DNA of 31,789 bases, taken from the NCBI GenBank assembly GCA_031409335.1, contig JANNWY010000152.1, forward strand, positions 1-31,789, written 5' to 3'. Origin of the DNA: Chthoniobacteraceae bacterium (GTDB lineage: Bacteria; Verrucomicrobiota; Verrucomicrobiia; Chthoniobacterales; Chthoniobacteraceae). Position numbers and translations under genes: made by a program. Each line of letters opens with the position of its first letter. The stretch's first letter is position 1. The notes below the pieces were generated by a model. That model had not been told where the DNA came from. It did no database searches and saw nothing but the letters and a program-made list of their open reading frames with translations. Of the stretch, positions 5,772 through 31,789 are shown one piece after another.

Positions 5772-5792
5772 CCAACTCCTCTTCCATTTCAC

Positions 5793-7001: not shown

Positions 7002-7116
7002 ACTGGCGTGTGGGGGTTGCAGCTTTAACCGGCGTTTTTGGTTTGATAAAAACCCTCGCGGATCTCCGAATTGCTGCATTCCATATCGGCTAGTATGTCG
7101 CATGCGGCGGTGTTTA

Positions 7117-9907: not shown

Positions 9908-10159
9908 GTGAAACGCTCCGACTCCGAAAAAATTGCCACTGCGGTGGTGGATTTGCTCGCGGTGGCGAGGCGGAAAATGGGGTTGAACTACGAGGATTTG
10001 GGAGGGCTCACCGGCCTGCACGCGACCTCGCTGTCCCTAATCGAACGTCACTTGAGGAAACCCACTTTCGTCAATCTGTGCCGGATCGCCTCAGCCTTGC
10101 GGGTCAGGCTGTCAACGATCGTGCGAAATGCGGAGAACCAAGTGCGCCAGGGGGATTGA
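9908..10159 (+). CDS. XRE-family helix-turn-helix transcriptional regulator
   Basis: RRKMGLNYEDLGGLTGLHATSLSLIERHLRKPTFVNLCRIASALRV is a complete HTH_3 pattern. GTG start at 9908 (TTG at 9893 is an alternative). Confidence 0.9.
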   Translation: MKRSDSEKIATAVVDLLAVARRKMGLNYEDLGGLTGLHATSLSLIERHLRKPTFVNLCRIASALRVRLSTIVRNAENQVRQGD

Positions 10160-10317
10160 CCCTGCCGAGACTCCCAATGGCGACCGCTGGCGCGCCGCTT
10201 CCGACAACCCATGGCTTTCCCTTCCCCACTTTCCTTTCAATCCCTGTGGGTCGGCTCGCCTCAGCCGCACTTGAAATAGTCGCTAGAATGGTGAGATGGT
10301 CCGGGTCAATTGCTGTG

Positions 10318-12621
10318 ATGAGTCGCTCCACTTTCTGGTTCCCATTTTTTGCCTGTGCAGCGCTCGCGATTTCATCCGCTGGCGCGGACGACGGCGTGGC
10401 GTTTTTTGAGGGCAAGATTCGGCCACTTTTCGCCGAGCACTGCGCGAAGTGCCACAGCGCGGACGCTCCGAAGGTGAAGGGCGGGCTGAGGCTGGATTCG
10501 CGCGAGGCGATTTTGGGCGGAGGCGATTCCGGCGTGGCGATCGTGCCAGGCGATCCGGAGAAGAGCCTGCTGATCCAGGCCGTGCGGTACGGCGACAAGG
10601 ATACGCGGATGCCGCCGCAGAAAGACGGCGTGGATCGGAAGCTCTCCGACGCGCAGATCGCGGCGCTCGAGGAGTGGGTGAAAATGGGCGCGCCGGTGCC
10701 GGCGGCATTTGTGAAAACTGAGGGTGCGGAGAAACACTGGGCTTTTCAACCGATCGCAAATCCGACCGTGCCGGAGCCCGCCGACCAGGCGTGGGTGAAG
10801 ACGAGCATCGACGCGTTCCTTTTCGCGCAGCAGCCGCCCGCGCCGCCCGCGGACAAGCGCACGCTTTTGCGCCGCGCCACCTACGATCTCACGGGGATGC
10901 CGCCGACGCCGGAGGAGTGCGACGCCTTTCTCGCGGACGCTTCGCCGGATGCGTTTGCGAAGGTCGTCGAGCGGCTGCTCGCCGCGCCCGCCTACGGCGA
11001 AAAGTGGGGCCGCAAATGGCTCGATGTCGTCCACTACGCCGACAGCTCGGGCAATGACACCGACCACCCCACGCCGCTCGCGTGGCGGTATCGGAATTAC
11101 GTCATCGACGCCTTCAATCGCGACCTTCCGTTCGACCAATTCGTGCGCGAGCAACTCGCCGGCGACCTCCTTGCCGCGGCGCAGCCGCGCGAACGCTACG
11201 CCGACTGCATCACCGCCACCGGCTACCTCGCCGTGGGGCGGCGCTTTGGCTCGGGCAAAGACGACCGCGATGTCCATCTCGACCTCGAAGACACGATCGA
11301 CACATTCGGCAAGTCGATGCTCGGCCTCACGATCAGCTGCGCGCGCTGTCACAATCACAAATACGACCCGATCTCCGCGCGCGATTACTACGGCCTCTAC
11401 GGCATCTTTGCCTCCACCCGCTTCAGCTTTCCCGGCGGCGAACATCACCTGCATCCGCGCGATCTCACCCCGCTGCTCCCGCCGGATGAAGTCGCAAAAC
11501 TCGCCGCCGCCAAGGCCGCGATCGACGCAGCCAATGCCCCGGAGAATCGCGTGAAGCGAAAAATACGCGGCACCATCGAGCTGCTGAAAATGAAGTTTCA
11601 CGACGTGAAGAAGCAGGTGATCTGCGATGTCCCGCAGCCACGCGAAATCTTCGGCGAAAAGAAGCCCGAAATGGCCTACGCCGTGACCGAGGGAAAACCC
11701 GCGAACGTCCACTTGCAAAAGCGCGGCGAACCGAAGGAACTCGGCGACGAAGTCCCGCGTAAGAACCTCGACCTGCTCGGCGGACAACTCGTTTCTCCCG
11801 ATGGCGGCAGCGGCCGCGCGCAGCTCGCGGAATGGCTCACCGCGCCACAAAATCCGCTCACCGCCCGCGTCATGGCGAACCGCATCTGGCTCGGCCATTT
11901 CGGGCGCGGCATCGTCGCGACTCCGAACGACTTCGGCACCCGCGGCGCGCCGCCCTCGCACCCCGAACTGCTGGATCATCTCGCGTCGAAATTCATCGAA
12001 TGCGGCTGGAGCGTAAAGGCAATGCACCGCCTCATCATGCTCAGCGCGGCGTATCAGCAGACGAGCCAGGCGGAAGGCGGCTTCTCCCGTCGCCGGCTCG
12101 ATGCCGAGGAAATCCGCGACACCTATCTCGCGCTCGCCGGTGAGCTGGATCGCACGCCGAACACCGGCCATCCCTTTCCCGATGAAGCCCTGTGGGCCTT
12201 CTCCCAGCACAATCCATTCAAGGCATTTTACGATTCGCCGAAACGCAGCGTCTATCTCATGACCCAGCGCGTCCAGACCGAGCCGTTCTTCGCCCTCTTC
12301 GACGGAGCCGATACCAAGGTGAGCACGCCGCTCCGCTACGCCAGCACCGTCCCGACGCAAGCCCTGTGGTTCCTCAACGATTCGTTTTTTCATGCGCGCG
12401 CCGAGTCCTTTGCGCGGCGTCTGCTGGTCCTGCCCGATGACCCGCAGCGCCTCGCCTTCGCCTACCGCCTCTGCCTCCAGCGCGCTCCGACCGATGCCGA
12501 GGCGCAGACCGCCGCCACCCTCATCGCCGCGTATCAGCGTGAATCCCAGAGCCGGCTCGAAAGCTGGAGCGCCTACTCCCGCGTGCTGCTAGGCTGCAAC
12601 GAAATGCTCCACCTCGACTGA
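10318..12621 (+). CDS. Planctomycete-type cytochrome c / DUF1549 / DUF1553 (PSD1) protein, copy 1
   Basis: Start MSRSTFWF. Signal peptide, FFEGKIRPLFAEHCAKCH heme motif, KHWAFQP, RRATYDLTGMPPT, YGEKWGRKWLDVVHYAD, CARCHNHKYDPI, NPLTARVMANRIW, PSHPELLD, STVPTQALW. Confidence 0.95.
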   Translation: MSRSTFWFPFFACAALAISSAGADDGVAFFEGKIRPLFAEHCAKCHSADAPKVKGGLRLDSREAILGGGDSGVAIVPGDPEKSLLIQAVRYGDKDTRMPPQKDGVDRKLSDAQIAALEEWVKMGAPVPAAFVKTEGAEKHWAFQPIANPTVPEPADQAWVKTSIDAFLFAQQPPAPPADKRTLLRRATYDLTGMPPTPEECDAFLADASPDAFAKVVERLLAAPAYGEKWGRKWLDVVHYADSSGNDTDHPTPLAWRYRNYVIDAFNRDLPFDQFVREQLAGDLLAAAQPRERYADCITATGYLAVGRRFGSGKDDRDVHLDLEDTIDTFGKSMLGLTISCARCHNHKYDPISARDYYGLYGIFASTRFSFPGGEHHLHPRDLTPLLPPDEVAKLAAAKAAIDAANAPENRVKRKIRGTIELLKMKFHDVKKQVICDVPQPREIFGEKKPEMAYAVTEGKPANVHLQKRGEPKELGDEVPRKNLDLLGGQLVSPDGGSGRAQLAEWLTAPQNPLTARVMANRIWLGHFGRGIVATPNDFGTRGAPPSHPELLDHLASKFIECGWSVKAMHRLIMLSAAYQQTSQAEGGFSRRRLDAEEIRDTYLALAGELDRTPNTGHPFPDEALWAFSQHNPFKAFYDSPKRSVYLMTQRVQTEPFFALFDGADTKVSTPLRYASTVPTQALWFLNDSFFHARAESFARRLLVLPDDPQRLAFAYRLCLQRAPTDAEAQTAATLIAAYQRESQSRLESWSAYSRVLLGCNEMLHLD

Positions 12622-14027
12622 TGAATCGGTCCCACTCCCGTCGCGGATTCCTGCGTTCGCTCGTCGGCGGCTCGCTGCTGATGCCCGGCATCGTTTCCGA
12701 GCTGCTTGCGGAAAATGGCGCGCCTTCTCCCGACGATCCGCTGCTCCCAAAGCGACCGCATTTTTCGCCGAAGGCGAAGCGCGTCATCTTCCTCTTTCTC
12801 ACCGGCGGCGTTTCGCACATCGACGCGTTTGATCCAAAGCCGCGGCTCTTCGCGGACCACGGCAAGGAGATGAAAGTCGATCACCCCGAGGTCAACGGAC
12901 GGCCCGACTACAAGCAGCTTTTTCTGAAACGCCCGCAGTGGGAATTTTCCCCGCACGGGCAATGCGGCACCGAGGTCAGCACGCTCTTCCCGCACCTCGC
13001 GCAATGTGTGGATGACATCGCGCTGATCCGCTCGATGAACACGTCGCACTCGAACCATTTCCAGGCCACGCTCGGAATGCACACGGGCTCGTTCGCGTTC
13101 GCGCGACCGAGCATCGGCTCGTGGGTCAGCTACGCGCTCGGCACCGAAAATCGCGACCTGCCGTCGTTCATCAGCATCGCGCCTTTCCTGCCGTACGCGG
13201 GCGCGCAAGTGTGGGCGTCCGACTTCCTGCCCGCCGCGCATCAGGGCACGCTCGTCGTCCCCGGCCCGGAGCCGGTGGCAAATGTGCGGCGGCGTGCCGC
13301 CACTCCACGCCTTCAGCAAATCGAACTCGCCGCGCTGCGCGAACTCAACGCCAGCCACCTCGCCACCCGCGCCGAAGACACCGTGCTCGCCGCGCGGATG
13401 CGCTCCTTCGAGACCGCCGCGGGGATGCAGCTCGCGGTGCCCGACGTGTTCGATTTTTCAAAAGAAAGCGACGCCACGCTCGCGATGTACGGCCTCACGC
13501 GCGGCCAGAATACCGGCTTTGGCTGGCAATGCCTCGCCGCCCGCCGCCTCGCCGAGCGCGACGTGCGTTTCATCGAACTCATCGACAGCGGCTCATCGAG
13601 CAATTGGGATTCGCACGACGACATGCTCGACCACGCACCGCGCGCCATGAACGCGGACCAAGCCATCGCCGGCCTGCTTCGCGACTTGAAGGAACGCGGC
13701 ATGATGGACGAAACGCTCGTCGTCTGGGCCACCGAGTTTGGCCGCACGCCCTTCAACAACATCCTCGACGCCAAAGGCCGCGAACATCACCACTGGGCCT
13801 TCTCCTGCTGGCTCGCCGGCGCCGGCGTGAAGCCCGGCATCGTCCACGGCGCGACCGACGAATACGGCATGCGGCCGATCAGCGATCCCGTCCACACCCA
13901 CGATTTCCACGCCACGATCCTGCACCTCATGGGCCTCGACCACGAGCGCCTCATCTACCGCCACAGCGGCCGCGACTACCGCCTCACGGATGTCGCGGGG
14001 AAAATCGTGAAGGGTGTCCTCGCGTAG
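12621..14027 (+). CDS. DUF1501 family protein (Tat-exported, sulfatase-like), copy 1
   Basis: Twin-arginine SRRGFL, PKAKRVIFLFLTGGVSHID, CLAARRLAE, WDSH, EFGRTP, DFHATILHLMGLDH, GRDYRLTDVAG. Confidence 0.95.
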   Translation: MNRSHSRRGFLRSLVGGSLLMPGIVSELLAENGAPSPDDPLLPKRPHFSPKAKRVIFLFLTGGVSHIDAFDPKPRLFADHGKEMKVDHPEVNGRPDYKQLFLKRPQWEFSPHGQCGTEVSTLFPHLAQCVDDIALIRSMNTSHSNHFQATLGMHTGSFAFARPSIGSWVSYALGTENRDLPSFISIAPFLPYAGAQVWASDFLPAAHQGTLVVPGPEPVANVRRRAATPRLQQIELAALRELNASHLATRAEDTVLAARMRSFETAAGMQLAVPDVFDFSKESDATLAMYGLTRGQNTGFGWQCLAARRLAERDVRFIELIDSGSSSNWDSHDDMLDHAPRAMNADQAIAGLLRDLKERGMMDETLVVWATEFGRTPFNNILDAKGREHHHWAFSCWLAGAGVKPGIVHGATDEYGMRPISDPVHTHDFHATILHLMGLDHERLIYRHSGRDYRLTDVAGKIVKGVLA

Positions 14028-14090
14028 ATCAAATCGCGGAGCTAAGTGCGACCGCGTTCGCGGGTGTTTTCTGCAACCAGCATCGCCCAC

Positions 14091-16949
14091 ATGCGTCTCC
14101 AGATTTCGCTAATCCTCATCGCATCGACCATCGCGTTCGCGCGCGCCGATTCCGCGGGCGACGAGTTTTTTGAGAAACGCGTGCGCCCGCTTTTTATCGA
14201 GCACTGCGCAAAGTGCCACAGCGCCGACGCCGAGAAAATCAAAGGCGGGCTGCGGCTGGATTCCCGCGAAGCGATTTTGAAAGGCGGCGATACCGGCGCG
14301 GCGCTCACGCCGGGCGAGCCCGAGAAAAGCCTGCTCATCCAGGCGGTGCGCTACGCCGACAAGGATCTCAAAATGCCGCCGCCCAAAGACGGCGTGGATC
14401 GCAAACTCTCCGACGCACAGATCGCCGATCTCGCCGCGTGGGTGAAAATGGGCGCGCCGATTCCGCAGGCATTCGTCAGCGCGACCGACCCCGCAAAGCA
14501 CTGGGCATTTCAGCAAATCGACAAGTCGCACGCGAACGCGAGCATCGACGCGCTCCTTTTCGCAAAAGCCCCGTCCCCGTCCCCGTCCCCACCGCCCGCC
14601 GACGCGCGCACGCTCATCCGCCGCATGACGTACGATCTCACCGGCCTCCCACCAACTCCCGAGGAAGCCAACGCGTTCGCCGCCGAATCAATCCGCAATC
14701 CGCAATCCGCAATCCGCAATCTCCTCACCCGCCTGCTCGCCGCGCCCGCCTACGGCGAAAAGTGGGGCCGCAAATGGCTCGACGTCGTGCGTTACGCGGA
14801 CAGCGCGGGCGATAACTCCGACTACCCATCGCCGCTCGCGTGGCGCTATCGCAACTACGTCATCGACGCCTTCAATCGCGACATGCCATACGATCAATTC
14901 GTGCGCGAGCAACTCGCGGGCGATCTCCTCGCCGCCGCGCAGCCGCGCGAACGCTACGCCGAGTGCGTCACCGCCACCGGCTACCTCGCCATCGCGCGGC
15001 GCTTCGGCGGGAACAAGGATGATCGCGACTTTTACCTCACCATCGAGGACACCATCGACACGCTCGGCAAATCCGTGCTCGGTCTCACCATCGGCTGCGC
15101 GCGCTGCCACAATCACAAATACGACCCGATCACCTCGCGCGATTACTACGGCCTCTACGGCATCTTCGCGTCCACGCGCTACAGCTTTCCCGGCAATGAG
15201 GAAGCGCAGCGCCCGCGCGATCTCATGCCGCTCGTCCCGCGCGCTGAGGCTGATGCCGGGCTGAAACCGTGGGAGACGGAGCTGGCAAAACTCGATGGCG
15301 AGGTGAAGCGCATCGACGAAGAACTCGCGGCGAAAAGAAAATCCTTCGCCGCATCCGCACCGGTCGCACTCACGAGCGGCGATGTGGCGAGCGGAGGCGC
15401 GCAGGATTTCTCTATCGCCGCCACGCCCGTGCGGATGAAAGCGGGCGAAATGCTCCAACTCACCGTCCTTCCAAAAACGAATCACGGCGCGGACTCCACG
15501 CAGCTCGAACTCGAAATCACCGACGCCAACGGGCGCACGTGGTCGCTATCGCGTGAGATCGTCGCGCATTTTACCGAAGACAAAATCGGCCCGTGGAGCC
15601 TGCTCGATGTCACGCCCGGCCCGGCGCTGCTCTGGCGGCTGGCGCGCGATGTCGTGAGCACACCCGGCCTGCATCACCGAAAGGCCAGCGCGGATTTTCC
15701 GGTCATCACCGCGAACACCAACGCGACCCCGATCAAAATCCTCAACGCCGTGTTCGCACCGCGTTCGCTCGTCGTGCATCCCGCGCCCGCGGGCGGTGTC
15801 GCGGTCGCGTGGGAATGTCCCGCCGATGGCGCGTTCGTGGTGAAAGGGCGCGTCGTCGATATCGATCCCGGCGGTGGCGACGGCGTCGCGTGGACGCTCG
15901 ATCAACGTCCCGGCATCGCCGCCGCGCTCGGCGAAACGCTCGCGCTCGCCCGCGCGTTCGACGCCGCGATGACGCAGCGCAACGACTTCGCCGCGAAGAA
16001 GCCCGCCTTTGCCGTGGCCTACGCCGTCGCCGAAGGAAAACCGGCGAACGCCCGCATTCAAAAACGCGGCGAACCGAAGGAACCCGGCGACGAAGTGCCA
16101 CGCAAAAATCTCGACCTGCTCGGTGGCCAGCAAATCCCGCCCGACACCGGCAGCGGTCGCGCGCAGCTCGCCGAATGGCTCACCGATCCGCAGAATCCGC
16201 TCACCGCGCGCGTGATGGTGAACCGCATCTGGCTCGGTCATTTCGGGCGCGGCATCGTCGCGACACCAAATGATTTCGGCACCCGCGGAGCGCCGCCCAC
16301 GCACCCCGAATTGCTCGATTTCCTCGCCACGAAATTCATCGAAAGCGGCTGGAGCGTGAAAGCGATGCACCGCCTCATCATGCTCAGCGCCGCGTATCAG
16401 CGGAGCGACTTTCCCGTCCGCCGACTCGATGCGGAGGAGTTGCGCGACACGATCCTCGCGCTCGCCGGCGAACTCGACCGCGAGCCCGGCGCAGGTCATC
16501 CGTTTCCCGAGGAAAAAACCTGGACCTTCACGCAACACAATCCGTTCAAGGCCGTGTACGATTCGCGGAAACGCAGCGTCTATCTCATGACGCAGCGCAT
16601 CCAGCGTCACCCGTTTCTCACCCTCTTCGACGGAGCCGACACAAACGCCAGCACACCCGCGCGCGCCGCGAGCACCGTCCCCACGCAAGCCCTCTGGTTT
16701 CTCAACAACCCATTCGTCCACGCCCGCGCCGAGGCTTTTGCAAAACGCCTCCTCGCCCAGCCCGACGACACACAGCGCCTCGCGCTCGCCTACCGCCTCA
16801 CCCTCCAGCGCACCCCGACCGACGCCGAGTCGCAATCCGCCAGCGGCTTTCTCGCCGCCTATCGCAGCGAATCCGCCAGCGATCTCACCGCATGGAGCGC
16901 CTATTCCCGCGTGCTCCTCAGCCGAAACGAACTCCTCCACATCGACTGA
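14091..16949 (+). CDS. Planctomycete-type cytochrome c / DUF1549 / DUF1553 (PSD1) protein, copy 2, with extra central domain
   Basis: Start MRLQISL. CAKCH and CARCH heme motifs, same conserved blocks as copy 1, plus a roughly 190-aa longer central region. Confidence 0.95.
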   Translation: MRLQISLILIASTIAFARADSAGDEFFEKRVRPLFIEHCAKCHSADAEKIKGGLRLDSREAILKGGDTGAALTPGEPEKSLLIQAVRYADKDLKMPPPKDGVDRKLSDAQIADLAAWVKMGAPIPQAFVSATDPAKHWAFQQIDKSHANASIDALLFAKAPSPSPSPPPADARTLIRRMTYDLTGLPPTPEEANAFAAESIRNPQSAIRNLLTRLLAAPAYGEKWGRKWLDVVRYADSAGDNSDYPSPLAWRYRNYVIDAFNRDMPYDQFVREQLAGDLLAAAQPRERYAECVTATGYLAIARRFGGNKDDRDFYLTIEDTIDTLGKSVLGLTIGCARCHNHKYDPITSRDYYGLYGIFASTRYSFPGNEEAQRPRDLMPLVPRAEADAGLKPWETELAKLDGEVKRIDEELAAKRKSFAASAPVALTSGDVASGGAQDFSIAATPVRMKAGEMLQLTVLPKTNHGADSTQLELEITDANGRTWSLSREIVAHFTEDKIGPWSLLDVTPGPALLWRLARDVVSTPGLHHRKASADFPVITANTNATPIKILNAVFAPRSLVVHPAPAGGVAVAWECPADGAFVVKGRVVDIDPGGGDGVAWTLDQRPGIAAALGETLALARAFDAAMTQRNDFAAKKPAFAVAYAVAEGKPANARIQKRGEPKEPGDEVPRKNLDLLGGQQIPPDTGSGRAQLAEWLTDPQNPLTARVMVNRIWLGHFGRGIVATPNDFGTRGAPPTHPELLDFLATKFIESGWSVKAMHRLIMLSAAYQRSDFPVRRLDAEELRDTILALAGELDREPGAGHPFPEEKTWTFTQHNPFKAVYDSRKRSVYLMTQRIQRHPFLTLFDGADTNASTPARAASTVPTQALWFLNNPFVHARAEAFAKRLLAQPDDTQRLALAYRLTLQRTPTDAESQSASGFLAAYRSESASDLTAWSAYSRVLLSRNELLHID
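14689..14721 (+). repeat. Intragenic heptamer tandem repeat (CAATCCG)4+CAATC
   Basis: Read directly from the sequence. Encodes SIRNPQSAIRNL and is absent from the equivalent position of the paralog. Confidence 0.95.
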
Positions 16950-18341
16950 ATGAATCCCACTTTTTCCCGCCGCGATTTCGTCCGCTCCTTCGTCGCGAGT
17001 TCGCTGCTCATGCCGGGCATCGTCGCGGAATTGTTCGCGGAAAGCGGCGATCCGCTCGCGCCAAAACAGCCGCATTTTTCCCCGAAGGCGAAGCGCGTCA
17101 TCTTCCTGTTTTCGAGCGGTGGCGTGTCGCATGTCGATTCCTACGATCCAAAGCCGCGCCTCATCGCGGACCACGGAAAACAAATCCAGGCCGATCATCC
17201 CGAAATCCAAAACCGGCCCGGCTACGAAAAGATTTTCATCAAGCGCCCGCAGTGGGATTTTTCGCCGCACGGCCAGTGCGGCACCGAAGTCAGCAGCATG
17301 TTCCCGCACATCGCCGGATGCGTCGATGACATCGCGCTCATTCGCTCGATGCACACGTCGCATTCGAATCACTACAACGCCACGCTCGGCATGCACACCG
17401 GCTCGTTCGCCTTCGCGCGGCCCAGCATCGGCGCGTGGACGAGCTACGGACTCGGCACCGAAAATCGCAACCTGCCATCCTTCATCACCATCGCGCCGTT
17501 CATGCCCTACGCAGGCTCGCAAGTCTGGGCGTCGGACTTCCTGCCCGCCGCGCATCAAGGCACGCTCGTCGTGCCCGGCGCGGAACCCGTCGCGGATGTG
17601 CAGCGGCGCGCCGCGACCACACGCGTTCAAGAAATCGAACTCGCCGCCCTACGCGACCTCGACGCCAGCCATCTCGCCGCGCACGCAAACGACCCCGCGC
17701 TCGCCGCGCGGATGCGTTCGTTCGAGACCGCGTTCGGAATGCAAATGGCCGTGCCGGATGCGTTCGATCTCTCACGCGAAAGTGACGCCACGCTCGCGCT
17801 CTACGGCCTCGCGCGCGGCCAGAACACAGGCTTTGGCTGGCAATGCCTCGCCGCCCGCCGGCTCGCCGAACGCGGCGTGCGTTTCATCGAACTCATCGAC
17901 ACCGGCTCATCGGGAAACTGGGATTCGCACGGCGACATGATGGAGCACGCGCGCCTCGCCAAGAACATCGACCAGCCCATCGCCGGCCTCCTGCGCGACC
18001 TGAAACAACGCGGCATGCTCGACGACACGCTCGTCGTCTGGACCACCGAATTCGGCCGCACGCCCTTCAACAACACCGCCGACGCCAAAGGCCGCGAGCA
18101 CCATTCCTGGGCCTTCTCATCCTGGCTCGCCGGAGCCGGAGTGAAGCCCGGCATCGTCCACGGCGAGACCGACGAACACGGCATGAAGCCCATCCGCGAC
18201 GGAGTCCACGTCCACGATTTCCACGCCACAATCCTGCACCTCATGGGCCTCGACCACGAGCGCCTCACCCACCGCCACAGCGGCCGCGACTACCGCCTCA
18301 CGGATGTCGCGGGGAAAATCGTGAAGGGTGTTTTGGCGTAG
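16950..18341 (+). CDS. DUF1501 family protein (Tat-exported, sulfatase-like), copy 2
   Basis: SRRDFV twin-arginine motif, GGVSHVD, WDSH, EFGRTP; colinear with copy 1. Confidence 0.95.
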   Translation: MNPTFSRRDFVRSFVASSLLMPGIVAELFAESGDPLAPKQPHFSPKAKRVIFLFSSGGVSHVDSYDPKPRLIADHGKQIQADHPEIQNRPGYEKIFIKRPQWDFSPHGQCGTEVSSMFPHIAGCVDDIALIRSMHTSHSNHYNATLGMHTGSFAFARPSIGAWTSYGLGTENRNLPSFITIAPFMPYAGSQVWASDFLPAAHQGTLVVPGAEPVADVQRRAATTRVQEIELAALRDLDASHLAAHANDPALAARMRSFETAFGMQMAVPDAFDLSRESDATLALYGLARGQNTGFGWQCLAARRLAERGVRFIELIDTGSSGNWDSHGDMMEHARLAKNIDQPIAGLLRDLKQRGMLDDTLVVWTTEFGRTPFNNTADAKGREHHSWAFSSWLAGAGVKPGIVHGETDEHGMKPIRDGVHVHDFHATILHLMGLDHERLTHRHSGRDYRLTDVAGKIVKGVLA

Positions 18342-23927: not shown

Positions 23928-26900
23928 TCAAGGTTTCGACACCGCGCGGTAAAAGCGACGCGTGTCTGTAGTCGGATGGACGACCGTCGCAGCCCCATCA
24001 ACGGCGTTCGCAGTGATGACGCTCACGTCGCTCCAGTCGGTGAGATTTTGCGAGGTCTGGATCGTGTAAGGCGCACCGGGCGTGCCGCGGATTGTCAGCG
24101 TCACTTGCGCGGTTTGGCGCGTGATGGCTTCGATCCTGGCCAGCGCGGGGATGAAGATCGCGGTGACGCTCGCGTTCGCGCTGAGCGTCAGTGAAGCGTT
24201 CGCATTCGGGGAAGAGACGCCCGTCCAACCCGCGAAAATGTAGCCGGGATTCGGCACGGCTTCGAGTGCGAGCGGGACGCCCCGAAAATAGGTTCCCGTC
24301 CACGGATACGGCGCACTCGAGTTTGCGCCGGGTAGTGCGGCGTTCACGAGCAGACGGTTCACGCGAATGCTGCCGCGTGCGGCCCCGTTCACATTCAGCG
24401 TGAGCAGCGAACTGCCGCCGAGCGCGAACTGGCTGACAAAATGCGCGCGCATCTGCACCGCCCGCTGCGCGGCAAAATCGCGCACGGTCTGCACGCGCGT
24501 TTGCCACGCGCTGAGGCTACCGCCGCCGCTCTGCCAGCGCGCGATGTGCTCGGGCATCGCGGGCTGGAGCTCGGCTTGCATCGCGTCGAGCAGCGCGACG
24601 GCGCGCGCGGGCTGGAAGAGGCTGTTCAGCAAATCCGCGGCGGTGTTGATGCAGTCGTTTTTGAACGCGGGATTTGTCATCAGCCGGCGGAAGACGGCGT
24701 TGCCCCACGCGGAGTTCGTGCCGGGGCGGCCCGTGGGCGCGAGCGCGACGGCGAGCGTGTTTTCCGTCACGCCAGTCGTCCACGGGTGGCCGCTGCCGAG
24801 ATCCGTATCGAAAAGGAACCAGTGCCAGCGGCCATCGAGGCCGATCGGTTGTGCAAGGTCGTTTGTGGCAAGGCGGCGACGCCAGATGCGGATGTTATTC
24901 TGCGGCCAGTCGGCGTTCGCGAGATAGATTTCGGTGAGGAAATAATAGAGGCAGTCCTCCACATCCACGCGCGCGGCCACGTAGTCGAAATTTGCCGGCA
25001 CGCCGAGATCGTGCGTCTCGCAATAACTCAGCAAATCAATCCACGGCTGCTCGTCGCCCGGCAGCCCGTCTTCCAGCGTGCCGGGGCCGTAGAGGATCAC
25101 GGCGTCGTCGTTGTTCATGCCGTAGTGCGATTGAAGATAGCGCGGGTCCTGTTGCTCGCGCAGCTCCAGCACGCCCCAGTATTCGCCATCGAGAAAAATG
25201 CTCACGGGCCGCGACGACATCCCGTTCAGCCCGATCCCCGCGCCGAGCCGGTATGCCCACGAATCGCGCAGCATCGAGTAGTCCCAATCGTTCCCCATAT
25301 TCCGCAGCCGGGCGTGGCGGAATTGCGTGAGTGGCGCACCGTTGCCGAGCTTCACGAGACCGGGGAAAAACGGCCAGGTGAACGTGTCCACCGGAGCTTC
25401 CGTGCCGCGCGCTTTCAGCCCGAAACTTTTCTGCCGGAACGAGCGCGACGACTGTCCCTGAATGTCGATCTCCACCGGCTCGTTGAACCCGAACGCGCCC
25501 CCCGGCTCGAACCATTCCAGCGAAGCCGCGCGCTCCCACGCCGCGCCGCGCTGCGTGTAATTCGCGGGCGTGTGCCCGGTGAGCGGCTCGCCGGGATGTG
25601 CCGCCACATACGCATCGAAAACCGCGCCGAGCATGTAGATGCCCGAGTTGTAATCGAAGAGCCCCGGCTGCGGCGTGACGATGCTGAGCGTCGCCAGCCC
25701 GTCCGCGCGCGCGGCGTCCGAGCCGATGAAATACGTGCGCGTAACCACCGGGCCGGGGATCGCGCCGGGCCGCGTGGCGCGCGCGCGGACGACGGTGCAT
25801 TTGCGCACTTCACCGACGGGCGGCTTCCAGCCGTCGGTGTGCTGATTCGCGGTCGAGGTGCCCTGGATCAGCGAGAGCACATTCGGCTGTCCGGCGCGGC
25901 TCGTGAGCGCGAGCGGCGCGGTGTAGGCGGGCGAGGCTTCCGCGGGATCGGCGCTGTCGAGCGTGTAGCGCAGCGTCACGCCGGGCTCGGCGGTCGAGAG
26001 CGCGAGCGATTGCGCGGCGGTGTAAAATCCGGGCGCGAGCGAGAAAAAAGGCGGATCGAAAACGACGCTGTCGTACGCCGTCTGCGAGTTGTTCGAGCGG
26101 CCCGGCGTGGGCGTCGCGAAATATTTCCAAGTCGCGCCGATGCCGCTCGGCGTGCGACCCAGACTCACATCCTCGCGCAACCGCGCGGCGGGCGCGGAAG
26201 TCGCATACGACGAATCGGGAGCGATGAGCGCCACCGCTTCGCCCGTCGATTTCAGCTCGAAATTCGTGTGCAATTTTCCACCCGGAACGCGCCGGTCTTT
26301 GCCCGAGGCGAAGACGACCAGATACGTGTGCGGCGGCATCGTCACGGCGGGGAAGATCCACTTGAACGGCTGCCCCGCATTGTCGCTCAAGCCCCAGCCC
26401 GCCAGCGCCACGGACACATCGCGACCGTTGAAAATCTCGATCCAATCCGGCTCATCGCCGTCCTCGTCGGACAGCGTTTCCCTGTTCGAGCTGACGACTT
26501 CATTGATGACCATCTCGCCATTCAGCGGCGTCAGCGGCCCGGTGATCGCGTCGATCTGGAAAACGCGCGGCCCGCTCCCGGCGGTGCGCGTGAACTCGAT
26601 GCGAAAGTCCTCCCCGACGATCGCGCGTTCCGAAAAAATCCGCGTCACCGCACCGTCGAAACCGTGGTTATCGAAGAGATCCACCTCGATCCCGCCAACG
26701 AGAAACCGCACGAGTTCCGTATCGCGATTCGACGACGCGCCGTCGCCGCTCAGCCCGATGCGAAAGCCCGCGAGCGAGATCGGCTGCGTGGTGTGCCACG
26801 CGATGAAATCCACGGTCTCCCCCGCGTCGCCCATCACGGGATTTCCATTATCCGGCACGCCGCGGTCGCCAAAAATAAAATCCTCCGGCTCGACCGCACC

Positions 26901-27659
26901 ATTCCGGTTTCCAAAAGAATCCTCGACCGTATCCGTGCCGAGCACGCGGCTGCTCACCGTGAAATTCGTCGCGAGCCCTGGCCCCTCATCATCGCTCGCC
27001 GCAGCCCCGCGACCGGTCAGCGTGTTGGTCGCCGCATTGAAAGCGAGGCGGTCGAGAAACGTGCCCGTCGTCGCGCCCGCGGTGCCGCCCGCATCCAGCT
27101 CGATCACGCGCGGCCCCGACGTGGTGAGCCGCGTGAGTTCGAGACGAAACGCGCGCACATTCGCCGTCGTGCCCGTGAGCGCGCTGTCGCTGATGAGCAG
27201 CGGGACGTGTGTATTCGCGCCGCCGGTGAGCGGAATATTCCCGCCGGAAACCTGCGAAAAACCCACCCCGTCCGCGCTCGCGAAAAGTTTGAATGATCCC
27301 GCGCCGCGCGCGGGATTGCCCGCGCGATCCTGGAAAAGCCGCAGCGCGATGCTCGTGAGATTCACCGGCCCCGCCGTCTGCCATTCCAGAAAATCCACCG
27401 TCCCCACCGCGCTCCCATCTTGAAAAGTCGCGTGCCCCGGCTCCGTCCAGCCTCCCCCGCTCACGAAACCGATGATCTGCCGCGGATCGGAATTCCCGCA
27501 GCACGGATGCTGCGGCGAAGACGAAATGACCTGCGCGCCCTGCGCCACATCGAACAAATCCGTCGTCACCCCCTCGCCGCTCCCGGTCGTGAAAACCGGC
27601 GCGGCATTTGCCACGGAAATCGCGGCCAGCGAAACCGCGAGCAGGCGAGCCGCCTTCAT
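23928..27659 (-). CDS. Secreted CotH-family kinase with N-terminal repeated module, lamin-tail domain, Fn3-associated domain and C-terminal beta domains
   Basis: Signal peptide ANA-A; LTD (VINEVVSSN...DEDGDEPDWIEIFN...LHTNFEL); LRYTLDSADP; CotH motifs IQGQSSRSFRQKSF, RLRNMGND, FLDGEYWGV, NADWPQNN, FDTDLG; AVPNPGYIFAGW repeat. Confidence 0.92.
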   Translation of the reverse strand: MKAARLLAVSLAAISVANAAPVFTTGSGEGVTTDLFDVAQGAQVISSSPQHPCCGNSDPRQIIGFVSGGGWTEPGHATFQDGSAVGTVDFLEWQTAGPVNLTSIALRLFQDRAGNPARGAGSFKLFASADGVGFSQVSGGNIPLTGGANTHVPLLISDSALTGTTANVRAFRLELTRLTTSGPRVIELDAGGTAGATTGTFLDRLAFNAATNTLTGRGAAASDDEGPGLATNFTVSSRVLGTDTVEDSFGNRNGAVEPEDFIFGDRGVPDNGNPVMGDAGETVDFIAWHTTQPISLAGFRIGLSGDGASSNRDTELVRFLVGGIEVDLFDNHGFDGAVTRIFSERAIVGEDFRIEFTRTAGSGPRVFQIDAITGPLTPLNGEMVINEVVSSNRETLSDEDGDEPDWIEIFNGRDVSVALAGWGLSDNAGQPFKWIFPAVTMPPHTYLVVFASGKDRRVPGGKLHTNFELKSTGEAVALIAPDSSYATSAPAARLREDVSLGRTPSGIGATWKYFATPTPGRSNNSQTAYDSVVFDPPFFSLAPGFYTAAQSLALSTAEPGVTLRYTLDSADPAEASPAYTAPLALTSRAGQPNVLSLIQGTSTANQHTDGWKPPVGEVRKCTVVRARATRPGAIPGPVVTRTYFIGSDAARADGLATLSIVTPQPGLFDYNSGIYMLGAVFDAYVAAHPGEPLTGHTPANYTQRGAAWERAASLEWFEPGGAFGFNEPVEIDIQGQSSRSFRQKSFGLKARGTEAPVDTFTWPFFPGLVKLGNGAPLTQFRHARLRNMGNDWDYSMLRDSWAYRLGAGIGLNGMSSRPVSIFLDGEYWGVLELREQQDPRYLQSHYGMNNDDAVILYGPGTLEDGLPGDEQPWIDLLSYCETHDLGVPANFDYVAARVDVEDCLYYFLTEIYLANADWPQNNIRIWRRRLATNDLAQPIGLDGRWHWFLFDTDLGSGHPWTTGVTENTLAVALAPTGRPGTNSAWGNAVFRRLMTNPAFKNDCINTAADLLNSLFQPARAVALLDAMQAELQPAMPEHIARWQSGGGSLSAWQTRVQTVRDFAAQRAVQMRAHFVSQFALGGSSLLTLNVNGAARGSIRVNRLLVNAALPGANSSAPYPWTGTYFRGVPLALEAVPNPGYIFAGWTGVSSPNANASLTLSANASVTAIFIPALARIEAITRQTAQVTLTIRGTPGAPYTIQTSQNLTDWSDVSVITANAVDGAATVVHPTTDTRRFYRAVSKP

Positions 27660-28834
27660 TTCCCCCGCCGCCGCGCCAGCACCACGCAGCCGAGGAGGAG
27701 CAGTGCCAGGCAGCCGGGCTCGGGCACTGCGGTCGTGATCGCGTCGATCTCGAAAATGCGTGCGCCCTGTCCGGTCGTCCGCGTGAATTCGATGCGGAAA
27801 TCATCGCCCGTCACCGCGCCGCCCCCGAAGAGATGCGTCACGCTTCCATCGAAGCCATCGTTGTCGAAAAGCGCGACCTCCAGCCCCCCGACGAGGAAGC
27901 GGATGAGCTGCGTATCGCGATCCGGGCTCGCGCCATCGCCCGAGAGCCCGATGCGAAAGCCGGCCAGCGTCAGCGGCGCACTCGTCTGCCACTGGATGAA
28001 ATCCACCGTCTCGCCGCCGTCGCCGAGCGTCAGGTTCCCGTTATCCGCGACGCCGCCGTCGCCGAAGATGAACGAATCCGGCTCGATCGTGCCGTGATTT
28101 CCCCCGAACGCATCGCGCACCGTATCCGCGCCACCGGCCACCGCGCTGCTAAACGTGTAGCCGGAGCCGAGGCCCGCGCCTTCATCGTCGTTCGCCGCGC
28201 CGCCGCGACCGGTGTGCGAATTCGTCGCGTCATTGAAAGCGAGGCGATCGAGGAACGTCGTGGCCGGCGCGACGACCGCGCCCGTGGCATCGAGCTCGGC
28301 GACGCGCGTCCCCGCGCCGGTCGTGCGCGTCATTTCCAAACGAAACGCGCGCACCGCCGAGGTCGTGCCGGTGAACGCGCTATCGGTGATGAGCAGCGGA
28401 TTATCGAAATAGCCGCCCGCCCCGGCGGGCATCGTGCCACCGGAGATTTGCGAAAAATTCACGCCGTCCTGACTCGCGAAAAGTTTGAAATCCAGCGCGC
28501 TGCGGTCGGGATTTCCATCGTCGAAAAGGTGCAGTGAAATCGCGCTCAGATCGACCGGCTGCGGCGTCTGCCATTCCAGAAAGTCGATCCCGCCCGCCGC
28601 GCCATCCTGCCAGAGCGCGTGCGTTGTTTCGGCAAATCCGCTGTTAAAACCAAACGCCGAACGCGGATCGGAATCGCCCGCGCCATTGTGCTGCGGTGAG
28701 GAAAAGATAACCTGCGCCCCTTGCGAAAGATCCCAAATATCCGTGCCCACGCCTTCGGCATTCGGGTCCGCCTGATACACCGGTGCCGCCGTGGCCGCCG
28801 ACAGCGTGGCCAGCGAAACGGCGAGCAGCCGCAT
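27656..28834 (-). CDS. Second PEP-CTERM unit (392 aa); possible independent start at ATG 28834
   Basis: MRLLAVSLATLSAATA-APVY is a signal peptide homologous to MKAARLLAVSLAAISVANA-APVF of the next gene. It is followed by one module copy and VPEPGCLALLLLGCVVLARRRGK. Confidence 0.6.
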   Translation of the reverse strand: MRLLAVSLATLSAATAAPVYQADPNAEGVGTDIWDLSQGAQVIFSSPQHNGAGDSDPRSAFGFNSGFAETTHALWQDGAAGGIDFLEWQTPQPVDLSAISLHLFDDGNPDRSALDFKLFASQDGVNFSQISGGTMPAGAGGYFDNPLLITDSAFTGTTSAVRAFRLEMTRTTGAGTRVAELDATGAVVAPATTFLDRLAFNDATNSHTGRGGAANDDEGAGLGSGYTFSSAVAGGADTVRDAFGGNHGTIEPDSFIFGDGGVADNGNLTLGDGGETVDFIQWQTSAPLTLAGFRIGLSGDGASPDRDTQLIRFLVGGLEVALFDNDGFDGSVTHLFGGGAVTGDDFRIEFTRTTGQGARIFEIDAITTAVPEPGCLALLLLGCVVLARRRGK

Positions 28835-31648
28835 GACCGCCGCCGGGCGAACTGTGCGCCGCAAAAACAACGCGCCGCCGAGGAGCAGCAGCGCGAGGCT
28901 GCCGGGCTCGGGGACGGCTTGCGCGGAGCCTGCCGCCAGAACATCGCCAAAGCCATCCGCGAGCGCGGGAACCGCGGGCAGCGGGTCGCTCAAAGTGACC
29001 ACCGCACCGTCGCCGATATTCAGCGCGGCCAGCGTCTGGCTGACGCCGAAATTCGTTTCCGCATTCGCGTTCACCGTGGAACCGCCCGTCCCCAGCGCGC
29101 TCGCGAGATCGGTGCGCCCCTCCTGGGTCGTGAGCGTCGCGTAGGTCTGCAGTCCGTCGAGCGTGAGCCGGCCGGGGCCGGTCTTCGTCAGCGCGGTGCC
29201 GCCGATTGCGTGGCTCAGCGTCACCGGGCCGACGGTCGCATTTCCACCGCCCACGGCGACCGTGAGCCCCGCGCCACTCAAGACCACGGCGGGACCATTG
29301 AGGTTGAGCGTCGAGGTCGGCTGATCGTCCAGATTGAAAACCACGAAGCCACTCGCGGGGAGCGTCACGTTGCCGATCGTCTCCGTTCCGTCAAAGCGAT
29401 TGTTCAATCCACCGCCGTCGTTCAGCGTCACCGCATTCGTCAGCGTCAGATCGCCTCCCGTGTTCTTGATCAGCTTAGCCCCGTTGCCCACCGAGATCGC
29501 GCCGCCGCCGAGATTCGCCTGCGTGTTGTAAAAAGTGCGTCCGCCCGTGAGCACCCACGATTGCGCATCGGCAGTCGTCCCGCCGCCGAGGATGAACTCC
29601 CCGACGTTCCGCGAGATCGTGCCGGTGCCGGTGATGTTCCTGTTAAAAAATCCGCTCATGTTGAACTCGATCGCCGCATTGTTTTCGATGTCGCTCACGA
29701 AGCCGTTGTAGAAAACCGGGATCTCATATTTCACGATGCCGCCGCTGACTTTGGTCAGGCCGTCGTAGGTGTTCGCGCCGGAGAGGATCAGGATGCCGGT
29801 CCCTATCTTGGTGAAAGTGCCGCCGTTGCCGCTGAGCACGCCGGCGAAAGTCGTGCCGCTGTTGTTGCCACCGGCCGTCAGATTTTTTCCGCCGAGGACG
29901 ACCGACGAGCCGCCGACTCCCGCGAGCGAGCCGATGATTTCACTCGCACCACCGATGGCCGAGATGTCGAAAATCGCGCCGCCGCGCGCGACGTTCACCG
30001 CGCTGGAATCGGCCAGCGCGCCTGCGCCACTCAGCGTGAGCGAGCCCGTATTGATGGTCGTCGCTCCCGTGTAAGTGTTCGCGGCGGTGAAGACCACGTT
30101 GCTGTTCTGCACGATCATCACGCCGTTCGCGCCGCCATTTCCACTGCTCGAAATCGCGCCGTTGAAAGTGACGGTCTTCCCATTGTTCCCGGAAATCTGG
30201 AGCTGCGTCGTCCCCGCGAGGTCGATCGGCGTCGAGGCGCTGAAGACCAGGTCGCTATTTGTCGGATTGATCTCCGCCCTGCTGCCCGCGCCGCCGTTCA
30301 GCGTCAGCGTCTGGCCAGCGTCGAGGTTGAAGGTCTGCGTGACGAACGAGTTATTGTCGATGCGCGGAAAATTGCCGTTGAGATCGGACAGCGTGAATCC
30401 ATTTCCCGTGACCGTGAAGCCCGTGTCGTTCGCCACCGCGCCATCGACGCCCGTGCCCGTCGCGTCGCTGTCCTGAAACGCGATGCGATTGCCGATGTAA
30501 CCGGCGAGATTATTCCGCGCCGTGATCGCGCCGGTGGCACCCGCGGCTTTATAAGTGCGACCGAAAAACAAATCGCGCTGGCCCGCCGCGGGGCCGGTGC
30601 CATCCCAGTTTCCCGGGCTGCTCCAGTCATTGTTGCCGGCGGTTCCCAGCCAGCCGGTGGACACCGCGGTGATCGCGTCGATTTCAAAAATCCGCCCGCC
30701 GCTGCTGGCCGTGCGCGTGAACTCGATGCGGAAGTCGTCGGCCAGCGCCGCACCGCCCCCGAAATGGCGCGTCACGTCGCCGTCGAAACCGTTGTTATCG
30801 AACAAGTCCACCTCGATGCCCTCGATGAAGAAACGCACCAGCTCGGTGTCACGGTCCGGGCTCGCGCCGTCGCCGCTCAGGGCCATGCGAAAGCCCGCGA
30901 GCGAGAGCGGCTGCGCGGTGTGCCACTGGATGAAATCCACCGTCTCGCCGCCGTCGCCGAGGGTCAGGTTGCCATTGTCCACCGCCCCACCGTCGCCGAA
31001 GATGAAAGACTCCGGCTCGACCGCGCCGTGATTCCCACCGAACGCATCGCGCACCGTATCCGCGCCGCCAAGCACCGCGCTGCTAAAAGTGTAGAGGGAG
31101 CCAAGGCCCGCGCCCTCATCGTCCTTCCCCGCGCCGCCGCGTCCGGTGAGCGAGTTCGTGGCGTCGTTGAAAGCGAGGCGGTCGAGAAACATCCCGACCG
31201 GCGCGGCGGCGGTGCCCGTGGCGTCCAGCTCGACGACGCGCGTCCCCGCACCGGACGCGCGCGTGATTTCCAAACGAAAAGCGCGCACCGCCGAGAACGT
31301 GCCCGCCAGCGCGTTGTCCGAGATGAGCAGCGGATTGGTGAGATAGCCGCTCCCCGCGTTCGGGATCGCGCCGCTGGAGATTTGGGAAAAAGCGACGCCG
31401 TCCTGACTGGCGAAAAGTTTGAAATCCAGCGCGCTGCGGGCAGGGCTGCCATCGTCCTGCAGGTGCAGGGAAATCGCGCTGAGATCGACCGGCTGCGGCG
31501 TCTGCCACTCGATGAAATCCACGCTGCCGCCGCCCGGCCCATCGGCGAACAGCGCGTGCGTCGGCTCGACCCATCCGCTCGTCGTGGTGAAGCCAAACGC
31601 CGAGCGCGGGTCCGAGTTCCCGCAGCAGCCGAGTTGCGGTGAGGAAAA
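27656..31648 (-). CDS. IS-interrupted PEP-CTERM surface protein with autotransporter-associated beta-strand repeats, fused in frame to a second PEP-CTERM unit
   Basis: Frame stays open and homologous upstream of the track start (FSSPQLGCCGNSDPRSAFG, 31648 to 31523) up to the IS end. Repeats FTKIGTGILILSGANTYDG, AANTYTGATTINTGSL, LTKTGPGRLTL. VPEP motifs at 28904-28915 and at the C-terminus. The 5' end is missing. Confidence 0.85.
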   Translation of the reverse strand, partial: FSSPQLGCCGNSDPRSAFGFTTTSGWVEPTHALFADGPGGGSVDFIEWQTPQPVDLSAISLHLQDDGSPARSALDFKLFASQDGVAFSQISSGAIPNAGSGYLTNPLLISDNALAGTFSAVRAFRLEITRASGAGTRVVELDATGTAAAPVGMFLDRLAFNDATNSLTGRGGAGKDDEGAGLGSLYTFSSAVLGGADTVRDAFGGNHGAVEPESFIFGDGGAVDNGNLTLGDGGETVDFIQWHTAQPLSLAGFRMALSGDGASPDRDTELVRFFIEGIEVDLFDNNGFDGDVTRHFGGGAALADDFRIEFTRTASSGGRIFEIDAITAVSTGWLGTAGNNDWSSPGNWDGTGPAAGQRDLFFGRTYKAAGATGAITARNNLAGYIGNRIAFQDSDATGTGVDGAVANDTGFTVTGNGFTLSDLNGNFPRIDNNSFVTQTFNLDAGQTLTLNGGAGSRAEINPTNSDLVFSASTPIDLAGTTQLQISGNNGKTVTFNGAISSSGNGGANGVMIVQNSNVVFTAANTYTGATTINTGSLTLSGAGALADSSAVNVARGGAIFDISAIGGASEIIGSLAGVGGSSVVLGGKNLTAGGNNSGTTFAGVLSGNGGTFTKIGTGILILSGANTYDGLTKVSGGIVKYEIPVFYNGFVSDIENNAAIEFNMSGFFNRNITGTGTISRNVGEFILGGGTTADAQSWVLTGGRTFYNTQANLGGGAISVGNGAKLIKNTGGDLTLTNAVTLNDGGGLNNRFDGTETIGNVTLPASGFVVFNLDDQPTSTLNLNGPAVVLSGAGLTVAVGGGNATVGPVTLSHAIGGTALTKTGPGRLTLDGLQTYATLTTQEGRTDLASALGTGGSTVNANAETNFGVSQTLAALNIGDGAVVTLSDPLPAVPALADGFGDVLAAGSAQAVPEPGSLALLLLGGALFLRRTVRPAAVMRLLAVSLATLSAATAAPVYQADPNAEGVGTDIWDLSQGAQVIFSSPQHNGAGDSDPRSAFGFNSGFAETTHALWQDGAAGGIDFLEWQTPQPVDLSAISLHLFDDGNPDRSALDFKLFASQDGVNFSQISGGTMPAGAGGYFDNPLLITDSAFTGTTSAVRAFRLEMTRTTGAGTRVAELDATGAVVAPATTFLDRLAFNDATNSHTGRGGAANDDEGAGLGSGYTFSSAVAGGADTVRDAFGGNHGTIEPDSFIFGDGGVADNGNLTLGDGGETVDFIQWQTSAPLTLAGFRIGLSGDGASPDRDTQLIRFLVGGLEVALFDNDGFDGSVTHLFGGGAVTGDDFRIEFTRTTGQGARIFEIDAITTAVPEPGCLALLLLGCVVLARRRGK

Positions 31649-31789
31649 TGAGGTGCAACCGATTTCTGGACCATTTTTAGTTAGATGTTTTGGGAGAGAT
31701 TTGACTCGAATTGAGCTGGTGAAAGGTAGCCCAAGGAGGAATGTTTCCGATGGGTGTTGTAGTAAGATTCGATATAGGCGAAGATCTCG
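31649..31789 (-). mobile_element. Right end of an IS3-family insertion sequence
   Basis: Abrupt GC drop. Terminus TGAGGTGCAACCGATTTCTGGACC has the 5'-TG end and IR style of the IS3 family, and the transposase C-terminus is adjacent. Confidence 0.9.
31681..31788 (-). CDS. IS3-family transposase (OrfB) C-terminal fragment
   Basis: Hand translation EIFAYIESYYNTHRKHSSLGYLSPAQFESNLSQNI* is the typical YI-x-x-YN-x-x-R-x-HS-x-LGY-x-SP-x-x-FE tail. Confidence 0.92.
   Translation of the reverse strand, partial: EIFAYIESYYNTHRKHSSLGYLSPAQFESNLSQNI

Follow-up and report, generated by a model that had tools for sequence, protein, structure and literature searches.

Can one bacterial reading frame encode two surface proteins that are cut apart and sorted separately? 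The question is raised by a minus-strand ORF (27656..31648) in a 31,789-nt contig of a Chthoniobacteraceae bacterium, the whole of which is referred to here as the window: frame translation places two units in one stop-free frame, with a PEP-CTERM sorting signal and a signal-peptide-like stretch between them. Viruses offer textbook examples of secreted proteins made as a processed polyprotein; in bacteria this is considered rare.

The fused frame and its junction

The features of the locus are, in the direction of reading:

31649..31789, minus: 3' end of an IS3-type insertion sequence (transposase end, inverted repeat), which breaks unit 1 near codon 48; the contig ends inside it
30662..31648, minus: remnant of the first module of unit 1; judged by its homology to unit 2, two galactose-binding-like beta-sandwiches in tandem
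28916..30661, minus: passenger-associated transport repeat (PATR) beta-strand stalk of unit 1 (PF12951, TIGR02601)
28856..28915, minus: internal PEP-CTERM (VPEP, hydrophobic helix, RR), VPEPGSLALLLLGGALFLRR; best TIGR02595 stretch at 912-931
28835..28855, minus: seven-residue in-frame linker TVRPAAV, standing where unfused junctions have an ATGA stop/start overlap
28787..28834, minus: inner signal-peptide-like stretch MRLLAVSLATLSAATA, 16 residues ending in A-T-A, with an ATG at 28834
27728..28786, minus: mature module of unit 2, two predicted galactose-binding-like (F5/8 type C / CBM32-like) beta-sandwiches (AlphaFold2, Foldseek)
27656..27727, minus: terminal PEP-CTERM of unit 2 and stop, VPEPGCLALLLLGCVVLARRRGK-stop, overlapping the next start (ATGA)
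23928..27659, minus: separate downstream gene with its own signal peptide, a third module copy, LTD, Fn3-associated and CotH kinase domains (Pfam)

A first, sequence-only reading had described an internal VPEP-TM-RR, a signal-like stretch, APVY, a module and a terminal PEP-CTERM without a stop between them, and this order is confirmed by frame translation and by TIGR02595, which matches the chain in two PEP-CTERM stretches (32.4 bits vs a cut-off of 16); Pfam PF07589 reaches 19.1 bits, below its cut-off of 20.7. APVY begins at 28786 and is followed by a 352-aa module. The stop that the same reading placed at the next junction is also present, in the ATGA overlap of unit 2 with the CotH-domain gene. 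The internal PEP-CTERM has a 419-aa tail, the C-terminal position being held by the second copy only, and its basic cluster is weaker than the terminal ones (RR-TV-R vs RRRGK). The inner signal has a basic n-side, an h-region and A-x-A, and at the level of pattern is homologous to the N-terminal signals of the family; its hydrophobicity (2.07, 10-aa Kyte-Doolittle mean) lies inside their range, and in alignment its cut site falls on the N-terminal one of stand-alone homologues, before AP[V/T]F. Shine-Dalgarno scoring does not discriminate here: ATG 28834 scores −5.0 and two real starts score −5.9 and −6.2, with a median of −2.5 in a crude genome background.

The sequence over the junction, which the first reading had left to be verified, is unchanged in two contigs that span it without a single mismatch or gap, one from run X1 (record 2, 27998-30950, depth 11.9), which may be the source sample, and one from run X2 (record 9, 27998-29040, depth 6.2); the two runs belong to one study and the comparison is at contig level. 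These contigs, together with the same in-frame junction in an independent ENA protein (P0001), speak against an assembly error as far as contig-level evidence reaches. Among the pieces listed for runs X3 and X5 none bridges the junction.

Folded from a 32-row alignment with AlphaFold2, the unit 2 module is predicted to have a galactose-binding-like beta-sandwich fold (pLDDT 90.6, pTM 0.88; a single-sequence fold reached only pLDDT 40), and its best Foldseek matches are CBM32 pairs (E 1e-11). Each half gives VIA Z 14-16, with rmsd 2.3-3.1 over 128-147 residues, lectins and non-lectins scoring alike. The modules may bind glycans; non-lectin members of the fold score as high. PF00754 is weak on the module family (E<=0.1 is reached by 7 of 32 members, the lowest value being 2.7e-4), and the module profile had no match among PDB sequences. 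In unit 1 the module is 75.5% identical to that of unit 2 and 93% to that of the unfused relative P0002, while the stalk scores 33.9 bits with PF12951 (cut-off 27) and 38.2 with TIGR02601 (cut-off 19.85).

Overlooked by the sequence-only reading was the IS3-type element that cuts off the start and signal of unit 1. A native start is missing from the assembled ORF, whose 5' end at 31648 abuts the end of the element, where rve_2 is found (29.3 bits vs a cut-off of 22); the same 140-141 nt recur at the ends of contigs C154, C251 and C136. At the end of contig C237 we found the matching other IS end, the start of HTH_Tnp_1, a 3-nt target duplication and the missing N-terminus of unit 1, and we infer from the target duplication and from homology with P0002-P0007 that C237 pairs with the window contig (C152). 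Because of the insertion, the window ORF is without the N-terminal signal peptide that, by pattern and hydrophobicity, is present on C237 and in P0001. The window allele is thus a damaged example of the fusion, from which the full precursor would not come.

Relatives and origin of the fusion

P0001 (1369 aa) is a diverged relative in which the fusion is intact. Its junction is identical to that of the window in 40 of 43 residues (93%), its unit 2 is 90% and the neighbouring CotH protein 92% identical, and its unit 1 only 79% and 63%; the junction has outlived both this divergence and what looks like an exchange of unit 1. The linker of P0001 reads TVRPAAA, with Ile where the window has Met 28834. 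Aligned at the DNA level with two unfused junctions, the window has GCG at the position of the ancestral start codon, ATG 28834 lying elsewhere; with the Ile of P0001, this suggests that a separate start for unit 2 has not been conserved. The same alignment gives the fused junction a net +4 nt, which rules out a simple point loss of the stop codon and fits badly with the alternative first offered, a recent stop loss with initiation at ATG 28834.

Six of the seven unit-1 representatives are unfused and end at their own PEP-CTERM, P0002 being nearest to unit 1 of the window, and all 8 of the more distant module-PEP-CTERM genes keep the stop. Unit 2 is absent altogether from one genome of the same genus, only G003 gave the module when the genus's 4 other genomes were searched at the DNA level, and no stand-alone unit 2 above 70% identity occurred among 35 near-length matches. 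The module fusion, known from two sequences, is probably one event. On sequence and DNA alignment, the signal of the CotH gene is the apparent parent of the inner signal; a duplicated module copy would have landed between that gene and unit 1 and taken over the PEP-CTERM/signal junction, in which 4 extra bases abolished stop and start.

Recurrence of the layout

In the host genome 155 of 173 PEP-CTERM-like signals lie <=40 aa from a stop, and internal ones are rare, since only 5 of the 173 have tails >120 aa. The genome encodes four exosortases above the PF09721 cut-off, without stops, and one signal peptidase I above cut-off. A second fusion in the same genome, on C95, is fused in 4/4 full-length relatives (65-89% unit-A identity), as found with search length limits under which split forms could not be returned. 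Its linker varies in length in these relatives, two of which are without the Met (present in 3/5 junctions of the C95 family as a whole); when 301 order-level genomes were searched for the C95 junction, only its beta-propeller part was found outside G000. The long tail of C62 was dropped as an out-of-frame read-through.

The sequence-only reading had also suggested looking for PEP-CTERM-signal junctions inside other proteins, and they are there: a junction profile run against 1.84 billion representatives returned internal PEP-CTERMs in 27 of 37 matches, in a search built to favour the fused layout. Basic residues and a second hydrophobic helix come next in 57/61 internal junctions, and one chain (P0085) carries 10 PEP-CTERM stretches; mixed alignments of half-junction rows were misaligned and were left out. 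Judged by sequence, the layout is thus general and extends beyond the window locus. Terminal PEP-CTERM genes have a same-strand gene <=150 nt away in 54 of 155 cases, 28 of them signal-like, 13 of these already in frame, and the window itself has an in-frame PEP-CTERM gene pair parted by a single stop. Chance fusions thus have plentiful raw material, and for the present one staying open takes only about 7 stop-free codons; both points tell against the polyprotein reading.

A probable processed polyprotein and its rivals

The locus is an in-frame fusion, and we put at roughly 0.6 the probability that its intact alleles, such as P0001, encode a processed polyprotein that is cut into two separately sorted proteins. 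Topology, the exosortase and signal peptidase I cuts and the surface location are predicted from sequence: unit 1 would leave the cytoplasm by means of its N-terminal signal, transfer would halt at the internal PEP-CTERM helix and resume, now for unit 2, at the signal-like helix after it, and the chain would be severed by signal peptidase I and an exosortase. The helical hairpin and polyprotein first proposed gain support in that the layout is observed, the fusion is conserved in P0001 with Ile for the inner Met, the ancestral start is GCG, the cut sites align, the enzymes are present in the genome and the layout recurs widely; they are weakened by the unfused state of most unit-1 relatives and by the IS. 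Since the IS removed the start and signal of unit 1, unit 2 would be made from ATG 28834 only, if at all, in the window allele.

It is possible, if unlikely, that the single chain is processed in part or not at all, with signal peptidase freeing unit 2 and exosortase refusing the long-tailed PEP-CTERM, so that unit 1 stays tethered by the helical hairpin, or with no cut and a two-domain inner-membrane protein as the result. The weaker internal RRTVR would agree with this, as would P0126, whose PEP motif and basic cluster are degenerate and whose hairpin is kept, and our literature search found no exosortase cleavage of an internal PEP-CTERM. Yet VPEP and A-x-A are intact in the window and in P0001 and near-invariant in multi-unit chains, each unit of which keeps a full PEP-CTERM. 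Rather improbable, in our view, is a tolerated read-through, the fusion being an unselected by-product of duplication and unit 2 having its own start, ATG here and a rare Ile codon in P0001. The complete 16-aa signal behind the ATG, the pair parted by one stop, the 13 in-frame neighbours and the C95-family Met are all consistent with this, and an ATT/ATC start could serve in P0001, which is known from its protein sequence alone; but ATG 28834 is neither ancestral nor conserved, Met stands at the second helix in only 16 of the 57 junctions and is missing in 41, and in the DNA of family members 2/3 new junctions are without any in-frame ATG, GTG or TTG ahead of the helix.

That the chain is non-functional, the IS marking relaxed selection on a decaying locus, appears very unlikely. 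The long-linker read-throughs of C153 and C66 in the same genome are indeed frameshifted further on, C66 also having a stop in unit A, and a passage of Haft et al. 2006 (PMC1569441) places 87% of PEP-CTERMs <=10 residues from the end and remarks that long tails are possibly non-functional. Against this, P0001 is intact across its 1369 aa, and unit 2 is free of lesions, 90% conserved between window and P0001, with a dN/dS of 0.27-0.31 vs unit-1 modules, an average over its whole history.

In its parts the processed polyprotein resembles the PEP-CTERM/exosortase system (EpsH, Xrt; TIGR02595, PF07589, PF09721), with VPEP-TM-basic signals, a predicted N-terminal signal peptide (P0001), cargo without a TM segment and a many-to-few pairing (173 signals, 4 enzymes); it departs from the norm in having one signal 419 residues from the C-terminus, with another export signal and another whole substrate after it. 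Flavivirus and pestivirus envelope precursors and Bradyrhizobium FbcH, the cytochrome b-c1 precursor, are signal-peptidase-processed. They share with the chain a stop-transfer helix and an internal signal restarting export (the signal peptidase cut being proposed here), but have no sortase-type step, whereas here every unit has its own sorting tag and the units are shuffled adhesin- or lectin-like modules. An internal PGF-CTERM-like ArtA substrate was reportedly described by Abdul Halim et al. in 2017, and LPXTG fusions are said to go back to Navarre and Schneewind in 1994. We know of no second exported, sorted protein in the downstream part of either. As they are cited in a passage of PMC11980579, a sorting enzyme acts in both on a tripartite signal that is not C-terminal, as proposed here. 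That passage (Guo, Haft and Wall 2025) states, with reference to two papers, that sorting tags function inside proteins too, and describes what is the nearest case in the literature, MXAN_5598, a single case with an internal MYXO-CTERM that is explained by gene fusion and for which processing is proposed. MXAN_5598 likewise has a C-terminal-type tag in mid-protein; it differs in tag and protease, and what follows the tag is an outer-membrane barrel/OmpA domain. The passage on it mentions neither a second signal peptide nor a chain of sorted units. No account of a PEP-CTERM polyprotein turned up in main texts; further internal tags may appear in Table S1 of PMC11980579. Passages from 10.1101/2023.06.07.544157, PMC12188702 and PMC7783341 contain nothing on internal tags.

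It seems to us an even bet that PEP-CTERM and signal peptide together form a reusable cut and re-export cassette, by which one gene would give up to 10 surface proteins in a fixed ratio, the chain being threaded and then cleaved by the two enzymes, exosortase and signal peptidase I, and that fusions like that of the window start such chains. The window locus, with its unfused relatives, 4-nt remodelling and start loss, is a snapshot of the origin of a chain and not the best test object; chains with internal tags offer a direct assay of exosortase cleavage, because cut and uncut forms lie hundreds of residues apart. If the junctions are cut, many giant 'PEP-CTERM proteins' would be misannotated, each being several proteins, a free C-terminus would not be required by exosortase, and the junction would be a portable means to co-display several proteins from one gene.

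The fused gene and its internal junction

The minus-strand frame 27656..31648 is, by sequence reading, free of stops and spans both units.

Features of the fused gene and its surroundings in the window
31649-31789: IS3-type element, also at the ends of contigs C237, C154, C251, C136, C253 and C106; three or more identical copies, which the assembly has merged
5' part of 27656..31648, minus: unit 1, module plus PATR stalk (PATR, a single match over the cut-off)
28915-28856, minus: internal VPEP-helix-RR
Between RR and ATG 28834, minus: linker TVRPAAV, in frame
From ATG 28834, minus: signal-like stretch of 16 residues
From 28786, minus: unit 2, second module copy, beginning APVY
End of 27656..31648, minus: terminal PEP-CTERM
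23928-27659: shuffled module, also in P0008-P0036 and C-terminal in P0037/P0038
21311-23869, minus: DUF6797/PVC-type propeller protein, azurin-like domain at its C-terminus, next after the CotH gene
10078-18341, plus: two tandem PSCyt1/PSCyt2/PSD1 + DUF1501 gene pairs

The sequence-only reading of an internal VPEP-helix-RR running without a stop into a signal-like stretch was confirmed on this strand, and a profile search gave two TIGR02595 matches in the one chain. The stop that it placed at the next junction is also there, the start of the downstream gene (module, LTD, CotH) overlapping the stop of the fused gene as ATGA, and the check it proposed over the junction agrees at the level of contigs: those of runs X1 and X2 (both from one study) span it without any difference. 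A pattern search found 173 PEP-CTERM-like signals in the genome, 155 of them within 40 residues of the stop and five with tails longer than 120 residues; the internal tag departs from the terminal position typical of the family. Haft 2006 (PMC1569441) describes long tails as few and possibly non-functional. The internal PEP-CTERM/signal feature is real.

The products are likely glycan-binding surface proteins, because structure prediction and structural comparison give the cargo module, with good confidence, a pair of galactose-binding-like sandwiches, a fold whose non-lectin members score equally high. The module, a 350-aa tandem of beta-sandwiches that is undescribed, has been shuffled between proteins of the PEP-CTERM, PATR and CotH-kinase kinds within a gene cluster that is conserved.

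Relatives, origin and damage of the fusion

Named relatives were mostly Verrucomicrobiota, including Chthoniobacteraceae, which makes that phylum the probable one for the source genome. The longer-protein search returned 38 matches, seven with unit 1. Read-through is kept in one of these, P0001, an intact fusion of 1369 aa (signal, unit 1, junction, unit 2, terminal tag) identical to the window at 40 of 43 junction residues and 90% in unit 2, but the remaining six stop at their own PEP-CTERM with RRR-x-K. The CotH gene directly follows unit 1 in a genome of the same genus (G003), where unit 2 is absent, and a stop is present in all eight more distant module-plus-PEP-CTERM genes, found in the 9 loci that were read out of 12. 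Among 35 near-length matches, none was a unit 2 standing alone at more than 70% identity.

Unit 1 of the window is 93%/88% like the unfused P0002 as against 79%/63% for P0001, while the likeness to P0001/P0011 is 90-93% for junction, unit 2 and CotH, suggesting that recombination took place ahead of a junction that was kept. The module tree groups the first module of P0001 with unit 2 (97/96). Aligned as DNA with two unfused junctions (27582-27742 of the window, and locus L014), the fused junction has four additional bases and lacks ATGA. The fusion may go back to a single duplication, in which a copy of the module was made and the PEP-CTERM/CotH-signal junction served a second time.

The fused allele in the window is young and IS-damaged. 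The final 141 bases of the window form a repeat that recurs at the ends of three further contigs and codes for the last part of an IS3-type transposase. At the end of C237 lie a start codon, a signal peptide and residues 1 to 47 of unit 1, and after them the opposite end of the IS. The element is flanked by a 3-nt duplication, and the X1 and X2 contigs each extend 30 bases into it. We infer the join C237-IS-window. The element interrupts unit 1, and therefore the fused gene in this strain is without its start and first signal. Decayed ends of the element lie on C39 and C21. Upstream of the unit-1 start on C237, a putative C-terminus of an AraC-like regulator was picked out by eye (a Pfam query there matched nothing), and the 60 bases upstream are kept in G003.

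Recurrence of the layout and chance fusion

Features compared with the fused gene
Window 4616-7103, minus: tandem DUF7453 PEP-CTERM genes, same frame, one stop between
C95 14137-18723 (L024), junction at 15274: DUF3344-like unit fused to a YVTN/Kelch propeller with CxxCH
C153 35989, minus, and C66 23292, plus: paralogous read-throughs, both frameshifted further on
L062, L066, L085 (G019, G017; same-family genomes): further internal PEP-CTERM/signal junctions

Chance fusion has ample raw material in this genome: 54 of 155 terminal PEP-CTERM genes have a close same-strand neighbour, signal-like in 28 cases, of which 13 are in frame. The DUF7453 pair, whose second gene has its own Met and signal and a frameshift near 5000, is a pre-fusion arrangement. 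In-frame neighbours being plentiful, single fusions prove little, and the argument rests on conserved families and multi-unit chains without Met.

The fusion on C95, a compact junction before a propeller protein of 1100 residues, is undamaged and lends itself better to testing than the gene of the window. All four relatives covering both its parts (P0123-P0126; first unit 65-89% identity) are fused, in a search whose length limits left no room for split forms; their linkers vary in length and Met is absent in two. The paralogues on C153 and C66 read through longer linkers (~55 residues), built from two different palindromic repeats (one with 170 BLAST pieces in the genome), into homologous signal peptides. 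A two-row junction profile searched against 1.84 billion representatives gave 37 matches, 27 with internal PEP-CTERMs; 57 of 61 internal junctions run on into basic residues and another hydrophobic helix, with Met at 16 of these 57, counts that come from crude heuristics with a query biased to the studied layout and GTG/TTG invisible. P0085 carries ten PEP-CTERM tags. Thirty loci from genomes of the family gave three junctions outside the source genome, two without ATG, GTG or TTG before the helix.

Proposed processing and significance

As outlined in Haft 2006 (PMC1569441), a PEP-CTERM protein is exported by its signal peptide, with PEP at the periplasmic face, the helix running out-to-in and basic residues inside. 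In the fused chain the short basic linker would remain cytoplasmic and the second helix would insert in-to-out, so that export restarts; signal peptidase I, present in the genome, would cut after A-T-A, the site used by stand-alone homologues, and each PEP-CTERM would be processed by one of the four exosortases encoded. This mechanism is plausible, and we put full processing in intact alleles at roughly 0.6. In its working the chain would resemble a polyprotein that is made up of PEP-CTERM substrates and processed by signal peptidase.

Partial or no cutting of the chain seems rather improbable to us. Production of unit 2 from its own start is slightly more so: the proposed ATG 28834 exists, but it is Ile in P0001 and falls where L014 has Leu, three codons beyond the aligned start position, at which the fused junction has GCG in place of the start codon of the unfused ones. 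The polyprotein proposal is the likelier reading for intact alleles such as P0001, which keeps the layout without the inner Met; the broken allele of the window would give no full precursor. That the fusion is dead is very improbable, and unit 2 has dN/dS of 0.27-0.31 against unit-1 modules.

One internal MYXO-CTERM, proposed to be processed, is described in Guo, Haft and Wall 2025 (PMC11980579). In the freely accessible article texts that were searched, PEP-CTERM chains that contain inner signals are nowhere described. The main use of the locus in the window is in showing how multi-unit chains arise.
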